Origin: Escherichia phage CJ19
Direction: 5' to 3' (one strand)
DNA: 49,567 nucleotides
Sequence record: MT176427.1
The notes under the pieces were generated by a model. That model was not told the origin of the DNA. It worked only from the letters and a program-made list of their open reading frames with translations, and ran no database searches. Made by a program: the position numbers and the translations under genes. Shown here piece by piece: positions 7,942 to 14,900 of the stretch (its first letter is position 1; every line of letters begins with the position of its first letter).

Positions 7942-7948
7942 TGTAAAN

Positions 7949-7977
7949 AATAAAAGCCCCGAAAGGGGCTTTATCTT
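7949..7977. terminator. bidirectional terminator between tail fibre and ssb
   Basis: Hairpin AAAGCCCC-GAAA-GGGGCTTT flanked by A-run and T-run; convergent genes. Confidence 0.6.
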
Positions 7978-8438
7978 TAGAATGGAATGTCGTCGTCGAA
8001 TTGCATTGACTGATTTGGTTGCTGCTGCTGGCGTTGTTGATGCTGTTGCTGAGGCTGATGTTGCTGCTGCCGTTGTTGACCTTGATTCTGCTGCTGCGCT
8101 GGTTCTCGCTGGCTGAATTGCAGTTGAGGTCGGATCATTTCAGCGGTGACGTAAACAGTCCCGTCATTACCCTGTCTAGACGATAAGTGAAGAGTGTCAG
8201 CAGAAATTGAAACAACCTTGCCCTCCTGGAACGCTTCATCATACCACTGCATAACATTTTCTTTTGCGAAGAATGTAGCTCTGTAGTTGCTGTAAACCGT
8301 CTCATCCTCGCCATTATGATTTCGAATCTTCATTCGTTCAGAAAGTTCTACGGCATACATTTTCCATCGCCCGTTATTGTTGCTACCTTCTTTTGTGAAT
8401 GGTTCTTTACGGATCTGACCAGTGATTACGTGTGGCAT
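7977..8438 (-). CDS. ssb: single-stranded DNA-binding protein
   Basis: C-terminus is Q-rich linker followed by the canonical acidic SSB tip DDDIPF. Confidence 0.7.
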   Translation of the reverse strand: MPHVITGQIRKEPFTKEGSNNNGRWKMYAVELSERMKIRNHNGEDETVYSNYRATFFAKENVMQWYDEAFQEGKVVSISADTLHLSSRQGNDGTVYVTAEMIRPQLQFSQREPAQQQNQGQQRQQQHQPQQQHQQRQQQQPNQSMQFDDDIPF

Positions 8439-9170: not shown

Positions 9171-9213
9171 ATTATAGCAAATCACCGCGTTCGTGTTTAG
9201 CAAAAAGTGCTAC
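9171..9213 (-). promoter_or_regulatory. early promoter cassette (ATAGCAC box + TGCTATAAT)
   Basis: Box 9196-9213; hairpin CGGTGAT/ATCACCG; consensus extended -10. Confidence 0.5.
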
Positions 9214-10250
9214 GCTTCCAGGATGTGCTTGAACTGTTTCATTACCCAATCAGGTGTATCCAGTTCGACTTCCGGCTCGCCGTTGTTGTATGAAGGCCAC
9301 ACGTCATTGGCTTCGCACATTGAAAAGGTGTGAATCACGCTCATGTACTGCGCTCGACCAATCTTAAGCTGATCGCTACTCATCCGGTACGCCATCGGCA
9401 AGTAAGGCTCCTTCTTCTCCTGGGCCAGCAATCGCACAACCACAGGTCGCGTTTCCTCAAAGCACTTGACGAACAGGTCACGCTGCAATGCCATCTTGAG
9501 GTAATATCCAAGGTTGAACGCCATGCGCGGGAACTCAGTCGGGTTTGCGCTCATTGTCGTTTTGTAATCAGTGATGACGACAATTTCAGGATGAATCTCA
9601 GGATCGTAACCCATGCGCCGGATGGATTCTGGATCATTAATGATGTCAACATGGTCAAGCCGAACCTTGACTTTAACGCCACAAATTACGCCGAACAACG
9701 AATACTCACGGAATGCCGTCTCGCTATTCATACAGGCGTTATGCTCAGGAATCATTTCAAGAACCTGGCGCATACTTACGCAAGCGTCGTAGTCTTCCGC
9801 CTTAACCAGCTCAACGCCATCGGCCCACGCCTGACACTGTGCGATCATATCAATCAGCCACATGACGTTGAGGTCTTCGCCGCAATCAACCATCATCTTG
9901 ATCAGTTCTGGATATTGCTTACCGCTTGTACCAGTCAGGCCAAATGATTTTAATTTCGTTGCCAATGCTGCCTGGCTAGTGATCACGTTTTCAATCTCGC
10001 TTTCTTTCGGTGCGCGGCGATACTGGCGCTCAAACAGTGCCTTACTCTCGAAATTGGTATGCGACTGCGTACCGAAGACCAGTGCCTTAGTCGTCGAGTT
10101 CATTTCAAACTTCCACGCCGCAGGGCAAGTACTGTGAATCTTGCTGAGTGACGAGCCTGATACATAATCGGCGGTCCACTCATCTTTGCTGTGGTAAAAG
10201 TCGTTACTCATTTCTTCTGACGTGAAGTATTGAAACAGTGGCTTGGTCAT
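9210..10250 (-). CDS. recombination exonuclease (RecE/YqaJ-like, PD-(D/E)XK)
   Basis: 346-aa ORF upstream of annealase gene, acidic nuclease-like core (VVITDYKTT); canonical sigma70-like promoter 10284-10312 upstream. Confidence 0.45.
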   Translation of the reverse strand: MTKPLFQYFTSEEMSNDFYHSKDEWTADYVSGSSLSKIHSTCPAAWKFEMNSTTKALVFGTQSHTNFESKALFERQYRRAPKESEIENVITSQAALATKLKSFGLTGTSGKQYPELIKMMVDCGEDLNVMWLIDMIAQCQAWADGVELVKAEDYDACVSMRQVLEMIPEHNACMNSETAFREYSLFGVICGVKVKVRLDHVDIINDPESIRRMGYDPEIHPEIVVITDYKTTMSANPTEFPRMAFNLGYYLKMALQRDLFVKCFEETRPVVVRLLAQEKKEPYLPMAYRMSSDQLKIGRAQYMSVIHTFSMCEANDVWPSYNNGEPEVELDTPDWVMKQFKHILEA

Positions 10251-10283
10251 CTCTTTAATCCTCGTTCGTTGTTGATGTGGCTA

Positions 10284-10312
10284 ACTATACTCGCTTAGTC
10301 GCATTAGTCAAG
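10284..10312 (-). promoter_or_regulatory. canonical sigma70-like promoter TTGACT-N17-TATAGT
   Basis: -35 at 10307-10312 and -10 at 10284-10289 on the minus strand; leader CATCAACAACGAACGAGGA before exonuclease ATG. Confidence 0.5.
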
Positions 10313-10386
10313 TGGTTACACGTATATAGCTGTAATTCGATGTATACATTGGTGTTAGTTACATAAAAAGGCTATCCGGACCAGCC

Positions 10387-10625
10387 ATAGCTCAATGTAA
10401 ATAGCTTGTATATCGTGTATATCATTTTCAACAGATGGTGCATTGGTGTGCGTGTGACTAAACACTGTATAAATGTACATATTAGAAATTTATAAGCGGA
10501 ACACTCTATAGAAGTAGTTACATGATATACACAGTAATATATATATAATAATAATAAGAGTAAAAGGTTGATATATATAGATATTTTAATGTAACTAATG
10601 CGTAAATTGGCGTAACAGCGCGTAT
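10387..10625. repeat. AT-rich control-region element, copy A
   Basis: Contains ATAGCTCAATGTAA (10387-10400), (AT)5(AAT)3 at 10537-10557, TAAAAGGTTGATATA...GATATTTTAATGTAAC and GCGTAA/GGCGTA repeats; about 80 percent identical over ~90 bp to 41186-41280. Confidence 0.7.
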
Positions 10626-10680
10626 ATCATTTTCCGCGGACGAGATTGCATACACCGAGTTACATCGGTTACGCGTATAC

Positions 10681-10726
10681 AATAGCACGAATAGCTAAAT
10701 ACTCCGTAATCATCCTTTGCTATAGT
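10681..10726 (+). promoter_or_regulatory. promoter cassette (ATAGCAC box + TGCTATAGT)
   Basis: Box 10681-10700; -10 at 10721-10726; leader CCATCGAAACGAAACAC; drives lipoprotein gene. Confidence 0.5.
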
Positions 10727-10766
10727 TACTCCATCGAAACGAAACACACTCACTAAGGAATACAAA

Positions 10767-10997
10767 ATGACTAAATTCATCAAATCGGCAATAATCGCAG
10801 CAGCAGTAATCATGACTGTAGGTTGTTCTTCCGGACCCCGACCTGACGGTTGGTGCGCGACTGAAGTTAACGGCTCATGTGTTGCTAAATGGAAAGGAGG
10901 TGTAGTTGTAGCTTCAGGTGAAACAGATATCCGCTGGGATGGTATCAAAAACCTCTCTGGATCAGTTAAAGATTATGGCACCAAGGAGTGGAAATAA
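10767..10997 (+). CDS. small outer-membrane lipoprotein (Cor-like superinfection-exclusion candidate)
   Basis: 76-aa ORF, signal peptide plus lipobox (MTVGC); promoter cassette 10681-10726 and conserved leader; adjacent to tail-tip gene region. Confidence 0.5.
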
Positions 10998-11959
10998 TGC
11001 CTCAGGGTATCTTGATAGACTTGAATGACGGAAGACCGAGAATGGAGATAACTGCAGGTTTAAGAGCGCCCGCAGTAACAGGAAGCCTTAGCAGTAACTC
11101 CACGTTTGATTCCGCCAATGGCACTAGAGACTTCGGACTAACAATGACTCAAGGATCTGCGGCCTTCATATTGCCGACAAAGGCTATTGACGTTTATGAC
11201 TTCGACTTCATACCTGAGGTTTATTTCATGAATGGATTTTCCAGGGTCAATAACTCAACTGGAAGGATAAGTATAGGGAACTTTAACGGCTCATCAGGAC
11301 ATTTGATTGGATTTGGCGCGCAAGGCTTTGAGGTTCTTGGTGCATCACCAGGCAGCGAGGGGATATTTGTCAGTGATTCGACTAACTTCACTGCAATAAC
11401 ATCAAACAGTAGACTCCTGACTGCTCAGTATGTCGGAACTGTGACTGTGAATGGAAGCTACACACTCCCGGTGACTGGAATACCGTTTGGAAGGTGGAAT
11501 AACCCAAACGTCACCCTTGAGTTTGACGGGGCAAGAATACTATGTAGAAACAATACCTACACAGGAATTGATAATGTCTCAGCATCAGTAACTATCGATC
11601 TTGTTATATTCAACAATACAGCACCAACCGCCGGGCCTGGTTTAACAATGTCAAACGCCTCTGGCCAGATAGTGTTTTCCAGCGTCAAGCGACCTTTTGT
11701 ACTAAGTGGATTCCTCCAGCTTTCCAACTCATACCAATCAATAGGTAATGGGTTTTTCCCAATACTAAGGTGCGGCGCGATGGTTGAGGTTACTGGCGGA
11801 TACAACAACCTTAGATACAAGGGCGTTGCGATGTCAAATGGTCAGGTTAGGGCGCATAAAGGAAGTGTTTATGGTAACTACTCAACGCAGTCTGGCGCGC
11901 AGTTCCCATTCAACACCAACATATCAATGCGGTTACCGTACATACCAAACATGTACTAA
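10988..11959 (+). CDS. hypothetical Asn/Gly/Ser/Thr-rich protein (323 aa), possibly fibre- or receptor-related
   Basis: Translationally coupled to the lipoprotein gene (ATAATG overlap); composition resembles beta-rich fibre domains; followed by hairpin 11962-11986. Confidence 0.4.
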
Positions 11960-11961
11960 AA

Positions 11962-11986
11962 AAGCCCCCAGAAGGGGGCTATATGT
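11962..11986. terminator. hairpin between convergent 323-aa ORF and J
   Basis: Hairpin AGCCCCC-AGAA-GGGGGCT with A-run upstream; weak T-run. Confidence 0.45.
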
Positions 11987-14900
11987 TAACTCCATACTCC
12001 AACTACAACCCTTCCTCCACCTGGCAGGTTAACAGTGATTCCGTTACCGTTAATCTGAACAGTGTTGCTTGTTCCGTTAAACGCGAAGTTACCATTGTTA
12101 GCGTAAAGGCTTCCTCTAACGGTGGCATTACTTAGTTCAGCAAAACCAGATTTATCAATAGCCCACCCATGACTTCCTTGAACGTAGTTGTTAGATTGGA
12201 TCCTGTTACCAATCTTAGCGTTCGTGATTGAACCGTCCTTGATTACGGCGCTCTGTATGAACACCTGGTTGCTCTCAACAACAAAAGGCAATGCCCACTG
12301 ACCGGAACCAGAACCAACCCCATTACTGATCGCGAATCTGTTAGCGTCAAATATGAACTGACTCTTAACACCAGCACCGCTGCCAACAAGTTCCATGCTC
12401 ATCCCTGCGCTATATTCAACCCCATTGTATTTGAGGCCCAATTTAACGCCGTACTGAGCGCCAGCTGATTCAGCATCTACCCATGAGTCAAGTTTTTCAT
12501 TCAGTGCGGCCTGCGTGTCGCCAAGCTGAGCGCTTAAAGCAGTGTCGGCAGTAGTCCTAGCTTCCGTTTCGGTTGCTAGTGCCGTCTGAACTTCAGTTAT
12601 GGAGGCTACGACCTCATCATCAATCTGCGCTTTAAGCTGCGTGAGAGCCTCTACACGAGCCTGAGTTTCATCTGCAATAAGATTCACTGCCTGAACATAT
12701 TCAGCCTTCCTCCTGCCGTTTTCCTTAGTCATTCGACGCACATCCGTGTCGTTTGCAATGGCGTTCTCAAGAATTGATTCCGCTTGCGCCTGAATAGCTC
12801 CGTTTGACTCAATGGCGTTCTGCTGTAGATACTTAAACCCCTCGGAATTCTCGATATCAACCTTAATTTCACCAATGATCGATTCCACGTCATCACTAGC
12901 CATTCCTCGAACAATGTCAGACCAGTCAGATACGTTCCCAATTCTGTCCACTAATCTCGCTCTGTACCAGTTCACATATCCTGCTGGCAGTGTCGAGTGC
13001 CAGTACTCGTACTGTGGGTATGGAATCATTGTTAATAGACTCGCATTCTCCTCACCAGCGTGACCTCCAGCACCATTATCTGGTATCTGCTGCAACTCCG
13101 TGTATGCAGTATCACCAGAGCCTTCAGGGAATCCCCATTTAACCCTAATCCCAAACACCTGATCGTCAGATGCTATTACTACTGTTGGTTTATCTGGTTT
13201 CCCAATCTTACCCGTCAATCCGACGCTGACAACTTCAGACCATGGAGACGTATTTCCACCGCTTGAGATGCTCCTTACGCGTACGTGATAATTGCCTGCG
13301 TAAATCCCTTCAACCTCGACTTCTTTGTTTGCTGTGCGCGGTACGTTCATCCAGTTGCCATTGTCCTTGCGCCACTGCACATCGTACTTGCTCGCGTACT
13401 GCACTTTATCCCATGAGATGACCATAGTTTCTACGCTCATTCCCTGGACAATTCTTGAATATGAAGACACCTTGATATTTTTAGGTGGCTGCATGTTGTC
13501 AGGATCTACAATGCTGGTTGGTCGGTCATCAATATTTACGCCGTAGTCAATCTCGTCGTATTTGTTCGGATCGTATTCAACTGCCGTAATGCTGTACGTG
13601 AACTCATCGTCGCCGTCGCCCTTCGTGATTCCGGTTACAACGTATTGCTGCAAGGCAACATCAGTGCGGTCGATTGCGAATACTGTGTTTGGTTGAACAT
13701 CAAAGCCAAACCCAACGTTAAGCTCAATCGTTTTCCCGTCCGCAGACACTTTTGAAATAGTCCGGCGCACCGGATTACCATCAGCCTTGTTCACGATAAT
13801 GAAATCACCAGCGCGTGCATCTACCTTAAAGTGTGTGAACACTTGCAGGCCAGACACCTCCATCACGCGACCTGATAACGAAAGCGTCAGGTTGCTTGAC
13901 CAGAAGTTATCAGCGATTGCCACCACGTCGCCAATCATCGGAATCATACCCTCAAGGCCAGTTGCAAAACTCACCGTCGTGCTGCGAAGGTTTGTTTTGA
14001 GAACCCAGCGGCCCCGTCGATTCGCTTCACTGCGTCGAGTACATCCGATTGCTGTGATGCTTGTCGGGTTATGACCGAAGCGTAACGAGGCGTTAAGGTC
14101 GAACACACCCTCAATGTCCTGGCTGTACATGTTCTGCTCGTCGTCGAACGTGACGTTGCAGGTTGTGTACATGCTTTTTTCACTTGCGAACGTATAGGCA
14201 AATGAGCCATCAACGACGTTATCGTTAGTGAAAATATAAGACGCCTCTCTCGGTCGGTCGATGACAATTGAAAGGCTCTCTCCGTTCCAGAAACTCATTC
14301 CTCGGAATATTGAGCAAATGTCTCGCACCAGATTGTACGCTTCAACCTGAGACTGAATCACAACATCGCAAAGATAGCGAGGCTCTGTTCCGCCGTGACC
14401 GTCTGGTACTTTCTGATCGCAGTATTGACCAGCGTCATAGAGTGACCACTTATCTACCGCGATCCCTAGTTCTCTTTGGTCGAGTCCGTATCTCTGATTG
14501 GTGATCAAATCATAAAGCACCCACGCCGGATTATTTGACCATGCTTTTTTAAAACTACCATCCCATGTGCCGCTATATTCTCTCAGTACTGGATCGTAGT
14601 TACTAGGAACGTTGATGATCTTCCATTTCTTTTTCGTGCTAATACTTGGGATCTGCGGGAACAACTCGCTGTTAAACTCAACGTAAACAAGACCGGTCAG
14701 AGGGTAACGGAATTTAGCATCAATCACTTCCGCATATGACTGAACGTTTATCGCGTCAACTACACGCGCATCAGTTGAATCAGCCGTAACTCGGCGCACA
14801 CGCAATAGAACCTGACTATTGAACGCTGGGATGTCGATTCGCTTTGTTTTGTCATATCCGCTAATGGTCTTTCCGTCGATGACGTCTGATAAAACTTCCT

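Follow-up and report, generated by a model that had tools for sequence, protein, structure and literature searches.

A probable LptD receptor-binding and superinfection-exclusion module beside the gpJ gene of Escherichia phage CJ19

The two genes that lie beside the gpJ-like tail-tip gene of Escherichia phage CJ19 (MT176427.1; the whole 49,567-nt stretch analysed here is referred to as the window) very probably make up the two-gene LptD module known from T1-like phages, in which a tail-tip receptor-binding protein (RBP) acts on LptD and a lipoprotein excludes re-infection. An earlier sequence-only reading of the same DNA had drawn an analogy between the lipoprotein and the Cor and Llp proteins of other phages; the analogy held as regards function, but homology to either protein did not, and the target indicated by the present analysis is LptD and not FhuA.

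The cassette consists of two overlapping ORFs on the plus strand, 10767-10997 (76 aa) and 10988-11959 (323 aa when counted from a GTG), and has the recombination genes on one side and the gpJ tail-tip gene on the other, all of them encoded on the minus strand (Table 1). Since the cassette is on the plus strand and the gpJ-like gene on the minus strand, the two are convergent, and these ORF orientations agree with the transcription toward the gpJ-like gene that had been described before. Both ORFs were considered to be real genes because their scores against the PF24052 and PF20051 profiles were far above the cutoffs. For the second gene, a start at ATG 10997 (320 aa) appeared more likely than a start at GTG 10988 (323 aa), the latter falling inside the AAGGAG Shine-Dalgarno sequence of the RBP gene. 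At the preferred start, the lipoprotein stop codon and the RBP ATG have one base in common (TAATG); the same 1-nt overlap was found in six annotated homologues (TR1, ETEP102, Rtp, Bas02, ESCO41 and EC3a), and the alignment of the solved homologue begins at residue 2 of the 320-aa form. The GTG start was rejected on the basis of the Shine-Dalgarno position, the TAATG overlap and the solved-homologue alignment. Both ORFs of the pair reported in the sequence-only reading were thus retained, with a three-codon correction that shortens the second from 323 to 320 aa. The TAATG overlap would couple the translation of the lipoprotein and RBP genes.

Table 1. Features of the LptD-type cassette and its surroundings in the window.
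Feature	Coordinates	Strand	Basis or remark
Exonuclease VIII-like gene	9210-10250	-	Flanks the cassette on the recombination-gene side
AT-rich non-coding element, ~215 nt	10495-10710		Divergent control region upstream of the cassette; conservation
Candidate extended -10 promoter, TGCTATAGT	10717-10725	+	Five-phage alignment; 41 nt upstream of the lipoprotein ATG
Shine-Dalgarno AAGGA of the lipoprotein gene	10755-10759	+	Sequence; 7 nt before the ATG
Predicted Rtp45-family superinfection-exclusion lipoprotein, 76 aa	10767-10997	+	PF24052, PDB 9RPS match
Shine-Dalgarno AAGGAG of the RBP gene	10983-10988	+	Sequence; 8 nt before ATG 10997, within the end of the lipoprotein gene
Predicted DUF6453 RBP, LptD type (Rtp44/RBP_Oeko family), 320 aa	10997-11959	+	PF20051, PDB 9RPT match
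GC-rich hairpin terminator, 18 nt	11963-11980		Fills the 26-nt gap between the convergent stop codons
Last ~54 gpJ codons, cassette-specific tip of the Phage_Tail_Tip domain	11986-12150	-	Part of the TR1-like mosaic block
gpJ-like central tail-tip protein, 1127 aa	11986-15369	-	Pfam FNIII-A_GpJ, Phage-tail_3, fn3, Phage_Tail_Tip

The 76-aa protein was assigned by homology to the Rtp45 family (PF24052, Phage_lipoprotein), with a score of 117.5 bits against a cutoff of 27 (2.6e-34; residues 1-75 on profile positions 1-80), and it matched Rtp45 itself in PDB 9RPS, a solved complex with LptDE (chain D; E 4.3e-35, residues 1-75). The signal peptide comprises residues 1-19, ending in ...IMTVG, and is followed by Cys20, with a Ser at position +2, and by Cys30 and Cys38; the lipobox MTVGC that had been picked out from the letters was located at this very junction. 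Pairwise identities were 96% with TR1, 74% with ETEP102, 74% with Bas02 and 72% with Rtp45 (74% for the mature part), and the three cysteines were invariant among eight homologues. Lipoproteins of PF24052 were found in 321 phage records. In the original Rtp paper, by Wietzorrek in 2006, Rtp45 is said to confer resistance.

In the Rtp45 structure, the equivalents of Cys30 and Cys38 form a disulfide (PMC12685063). The binding site of Rtp45 is on the periplasmic side of LptD, flanked by LptE and LptM (Dunbar et al., PNAS 2025, PMC12685063), and the Rtp45 hairpin, directed up the LptD lumen, shifts extracellular loop 4 by up to 20 Å, so that RBP binding is precluded (PMC12685063). The CJ19 lipoprotein most likely blocks LptD from inside in the same manner, allowing infected cells to escape re-infection; the proposal that the small lipoprotein blocks the phage's own receptor had already been made, and the 72% identity to a structurally characterised exclusion protein speaks in its favour. 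The lipoprotein would be exported and lipidated at Cys20, and because residue +2 is a Ser, its predicted destination is the inner leaflet of the outer membrane. It would then bind the periplasmic face of LptD between LptE and LptM, and its beta-hairpin would rise through the lumen of the LptD barrel, displacing extracellular loop 4. With the loop out of place, neither an incoming nor a newly released phage could attach through its RBP; the outcome would be superinfection exclusion, which would also save progeny from loss on cell debris.

The partner gene was assigned, on sequence grounds, as encoding a DUF6453 receptor-binding protein of the LptD type. Its product matched Pfam PF20051 (DUF6453) with 467 bits (cutoff 25, 2.7e-140) over profile positions 1-291 of 291, and chain C of PDB 9RPT, 9RPW and 9RQI (RBP_Oeko) with an E of 1.5e-69 and 42.9% identity over residues 2-320. 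RBP_Oeko is the RBP of Oekolampad (Bas18), and its structure on LptDE, like that of Rtp45, was published by Dunbar et al. (PNAS 2025, PMC12685063). The 323-aa partner had previously been left without a clear assignment, and the full-length match to RBP_Oeko (43%) identifies it as a receptor-binding protein; the Asn/Gly/Ser/Thr-rich composition noted at that time was recovered in the large ORF (N+G+S+T = 39.4%). Pairwise identities were 97% with TR1, 75% with ETEP102, 43.4% with Rtp44 and 42.5% with Bas02 (full coverage), and DUF6453 RBPs were found in 364 phage records. The ORF, of 963 bp, lies directly downstream of the gpJ homologue, at the place and with the size published for LptD-RBPs (directly after the gpJ homologue, ORF of about 930-963 bp; Black et al., PMC13035648).

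The N-terminal ~25 residues of the RBP and a C-terminal LPYxPNMY are conserved, while the variable part spans residues ~30-120. Gln298 aligned with Gln299 of RBP_Oeko, a residue that contacts LptD (PMC12685063). Residues 42-121 were only 20-25% identical to RBP_Oeko, and for this reason the contact details may differ from those of RBP_Oeko. A two-beta-sandwich fold with distal loops is a trait listed for the LptD-type RBPs (Rtp44/RBP_Oeko), and in the cryo-EM map of LptDE-bound RBP_Oeko, disorder affects the portion nearest the tail (PMC12685063). In CJ19, the RBP would dock on the C-terminal tip of gpJ, its distal loops would enter the extracellular mouth of the LptDE lipopolysaccharide translocon, and its insertion would make adsorption irreversible and set off the injection of DNA.

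Hosts resistant to Bas01 and Bas02 carry lptD mutations (Maffei et al. 2021), the LptD dependence of OzMSK has been confirmed (Black et al. 2025, PMC13035648), the lptD loop deletions Delta Y658-Y678 and Delta L394-V396 block Bas01, Bas02 and OzMSK, and an ORF of IME542 was modelled as an LptD-RBP (Black et al., PMC13035648); positions 10400-12100 of the window showed 96.2% DNA identity to IME542 and TR1. According to a 2026 preprint, the LptD-, FhuA-, BtuB- and YncD-type RBPs form four mutually unrelated families, and each receptor-specific family is coherent at >30% identity and >99% coverage. The CJ19 RBP displayed more than 30% identity and near-complete coverage against RBP_Oeko, Bas02 and Rtp44, and binding to LptD is the most likely property of this allele.

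The same two Pfam families are present in the rtp45-rtp44 locus of Rtp and in the Bas01, Bas02 and Bas18 loci (the LptD 'bona fide RBP locus'; Maffei 2021, Black 2025, Dunbar 2025). The likeness to these Rtp/BASEL loci extends to the gene order (lipoprotein first, then RBP, with the 1-nt TAATG overlap), the convergent position with respect to gpJ, the LptD-type gpJ tail, and the identities of 72-74% for the lipoprotein and 43% over the full length for the RBP; on every sequence-level criterion tested, the cassette fits the Rtp44/Rtp45 (LptD) module. The CJ19 RBP differs in belonging to a TR1/IME542/phiEB49 branch, which carries four extra residues close to the C-terminus and diverges at residues 30-120. 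Furthermore, the backbone of CJ19 is Nouzillyvirus-like and not of the Braunvirinae, as in the Rtp/BASEL comparison loci, and CJ19 lacks a dcm or anti-repressor gene between the promoter and the lipoprotein gene, whereas Bas02, ESCO41 and EC3a have one.

The neighbouring gpJ-like protein (PDB 9l9p_S, E 0; lambda gpJ 8iyk_J, E 9e-115) was compared with those of LptD-type phages and of two FhuA/Cor-type phages, the Braunvirinae phage Bas03 and T1. Its last 54 aa were 69-98% identical to LptD-type phages, 30% to Bas03 and 19% to T1; for the preceding 146 aa the values were 71-96%, 70% and 60%, respectively. The gpJ tail co-varies with the type of cassette (LptD vs FhuA/Cor), in agreement with the 2026 preprint, in which the gpJ tip was specificity-associated. 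Because of this co-variation, the gpJ tip is presumed to be the docking site of the RBP. The gpJ protein is a scaffold carrying the RBP, and the specificity module takes in just its last ~54 residues.

That the lipoprotein might be a Cor or Llp homologue blocking FhuA, as in T1, phi80 and T5, is scarcely credible, even though its size, genomic position and orientation match cor of T1 and Bas03 and it has a lipoprotein signal peptide. Cor of T1, phi80 and N15 is likewise a lipoprotein of ~75 aa encoded at the same locus on the strand opposite gpJ, and in Bas03, of the Braunvirinae, the conserved intergenic element is again present upstream of it, but the mature domain of Cor is unrelated and the gpJ tail is different, and the tip proteins of the Cor systems are unrelated to DUF6453 and encoded on the gpJ strand. 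The BLASTP alignment of the lipoprotein with T1 Cor was confined to residues 1-25, that is, to the signal peptide, and T1 Cor scored 17.7 bits against PF24052, below the cutoff of 27. The Llp/pb5 pair of T5 shares the functional logic of the CJ19 pair, with a monomeric RBP at the tip of the central fibre and an RBP-adjacent small lipoprotein that binds the periplasmic face of the receptor and stops RBP binding (PMC12685063). However, the T5 receptor is the TonB-dependent transporter FhuA, Llp has no sequence similarity to the CJ19 lipoprotein, and its mechanism is long-range allostery, in contrast to the steric displacement of LptD loop 4 that Rtp45 brings about through the lumen (PMC12685063). 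No Llp chain was among the PDB matches of the lipoprotein at E <= 1 (the Llp-FhuA entry is 8A60), and the lipoprotein is accompanied by a partner gene and a gpJ tip that are both LptD-type. Homology to Cor or Llp was rejected in view of the BLASTP result, the PF24052 score of Cor and the PDB search at E <= 1.

It is also extremely improbable that the 320-aa product is not a virion protein but works in the infected cell as a membrane protein or moron, as would be gathered from the label of phrog_1265 ('membrane protein; moron, auxiliary metabolic gene and host takeover'), from the RefSeq name 'membrane protein' given to Rtp44 and many homologues, and from the direction of the gene, opposite to the tail operon. 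The protein has no hydrophobic or transmembrane segment (maximum Kyte-Doolittle value of 1.04 in a 19-residue window), its mEp021 homologue is annotated as a virion structural protein, and the RBP allele tracks receptor use across phage families (Maffei et al. 2021; 2026 preprint). The PHROG/RefSeq label is misleading and was discarded on the basis of the hydropathy and the solved homologue. There is a slim chance that the cassette is of the same kind, with a diverged allele that uses another outer-membrane protein instead of or besides LptD: the RBP is just 43% identical to the validated LptD binders (just 20-25% in the segment 42-121), and the RBP loci of these phages change receptors through exchange (Maffei et al. 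2021). Moreover, Bas01 requires NupG as well as LptD (2026 preprint), so a second receptor is possible for CJ19. Nevertheless, the exclusion lipoprotein has to match the receptor, and that of CJ19 is 72% identical to LptD-bound Rtp45, with a nearly identical hairpin segment. The four receptor-specific RBP families are unrelated, with within-family identity >30% and no reported exception (2026 preprint), the CJ19 gpJ tip is of the LptD type, and the Bas01 determinant of NupG specificity was located in a domain of gpJ and not in the RBP (2026 preprint). The two-gene module directed at LptD is the reading preferred here.

With its two neighbours encoded on the opposite strand, the cassette must carry a promoter of its own within the 516-nt spacer. 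The separate promoter assumed in the sequence-only reading found backing in the gene orientation and the conservation, but not in a generic sigma-70 promoter scan, which yielded 6 sites vs 4.6 +/- 2.7 in shuffled sequence (no enrichment). The candidate extended -10 was absent from the list produced by that scan and was found through an alignment of five phages (the window, TR1, ETEP102, Rtp and Bas02), all of which keep TGn plus TATAGT/TACTAT while the preceding 20 nt vary. Transcription would begin at this conserved extended -10, about 40 nt upstream of the lipoprotein gene, with a start predicted near 10732, the structural RBP and the exclusion lipoprotein would be co-transcribed, and the transcript would end at the hairpin common to the convergent gpJ gene. 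The stem of this hairpin has 7 bp, six of them GC pairs, with folding energies of -15.1 kcal/mol on the plus strand and -15.7 kcal/mol on the minus strand. On the minus strand (gpJ side) the stem is followed by TTTTTT; on the plus strand no T-run was found after the stem, and an A-run stands before it. Terminators are annotated at positions homologous to the hairpin in ETEP102 and EC3a. Given that the scan was not enriched and that the hairpin lacks a T-run on the plus strand, we infer the two ends of the transcript as candidate positions only.

Other signals were observed around the cassette and elsewhere. A sigma-70 match on the minus strand, TTGACT-16-TATAGT at 10284-10311 (10/12 positions), lies just upstream of the exonuclease gene and probably drives the recombination operon as a divergent promoter. 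The leader includes a 28-nt segment (10721-10748) that is present once in the window and recurs elsewhere in Bas03. Another GC-hairpin terminator, AAAAGCCCCGAAAGGGGCTTT, was located at 7949-7979, adjoining an ambiguous base N at 7948; in ETEP102 this site separates the convergent lateral tail fibre and ssb-side genes, and its 31-nt sequence is that of the gpJ/RBP terminator in ETEP102, Rtp and Bas02.

Judged by its first 25 kb, the backbone of the window was closest to ETEP102 (90.6% identity at 95% coverage), which is related to ESCO41 (genus Nouzillyvirus). In a sliding comparison, positions 10500-12150 were 96-100% identical to TR1, which belongs to the Braunvirinae (Christensenvirus), and 55-87% identical to ETEP102, a relation that was reversed on both flanks, the surrounding backbone being 85-100% ETEP102-like. 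Because a TR1-like block sits inside an ETEP102-like backbone, the region 10500-12150 looks like a recombinational swap of the receptor module. The exchanged block comprises the leader, both genes, the hairpin and the last ~54 gpJ codons, with the crossovers placed within the invariant intergenic element and the gpJ Tail_Tip domain.

The intergenic element, which marks the left edge of the exchanged block, showed close to 100% identity across the window, TR1, ETEP102, Rtp and Bas02. It was found in 134 phage records (66/134 at 95-99% identity) and is near-invariant in Braunvirinae, Rogunavirinae and Nouzillyvirus-like phages, while the adjacent genes are strongly diverged (RBPs 43% identical). 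A 33-nt direct repeat, GTTAC/GTAAC repeats and GCGTATA repeats were detected in it, with a GC content of 26-32%, and two copies of the element were observed in a few genomes. It is also present upstream of the cor operon in Bas03, a FhuA-type cassette, which argues that it is a backbone element and not LptD-specific. The Rfam search of 10200-12100 returned only two sub-threshold chance matches and no known RNA. The element might serve as a divergent promoter or an array of regulatory sites, as an origin of replication, or as a linker for recombination. A more specific proposal, that it is a dedicated cis-element (origin, regulator array or recombination hotspot) which together with the gpJ segment would provide the homology arms for module swaps, was considered doubtful; if true, the window would represent a caught example of an inter-lineage receptor-module swap.

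The space between the element and the lipoprotein gene holds no extra gene in the window. In Bas02, a Dcm-like methyltransferase gene was observed there (locus L004, 3245-3934), and in ESCO41 (locus L005, 3712-4473) and EC3a (locus L006, 2827-3474) Rha/anti-repressor genes were observed. Because the cargo of this slot differs among related phages, the short operon is also an insertion site for accessory genes.

Outside these loci, the same triad was observed at separate loci of KarlSchell Bas89 (PQ850613.1; L007, 2021-4022, and L008, 2468-2749), of the Gordonclarkvirinae/Kuravirus podophages. Bas89 encodes a 322-aa tail-needle protein with a gpJ-type Phage_Tail_Tip domain (SU10 PDB 7Z4B, E 1.7e-187), a 343-aa DUF6453 protein directly after the needle gene (Pfam 2.8e-23; RBP_Oeko 9RPT, 1e-10), and, among its early genes, a 93-aa lipoprotein of the Rtp45 family (PF24052, 1.1e-34; 44% identical, with the cysteine pair kept). 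No link between kuraviruses and LptD was found in the literature searched, and gp19 is nowhere mentioned in the SU10 structure paper. The arrangement suggests that kuraviruses may use LptD as terminal receptor via a needle-tip RBP.

The CJ19 cassette represents an ordinary type of host-recognition and exclusion module that is known from earlier work; GenBank contains near-identical alleles, both protein families include solved members, and the cassette adds nothing new on mechanism. What the window offers is a clean natural example of inter-lineage exchange, in which the leader, exclusion gene, RBP, terminator and gpJ tip appear to have travelled as one block. The terminal receptor of CJ19 is predictable from its sequence as LptD, an essential and conserved outer-membrane protein, and this prediction is relevant to the choice of phages for therapy and to the engineering of phage-resistant production strains.
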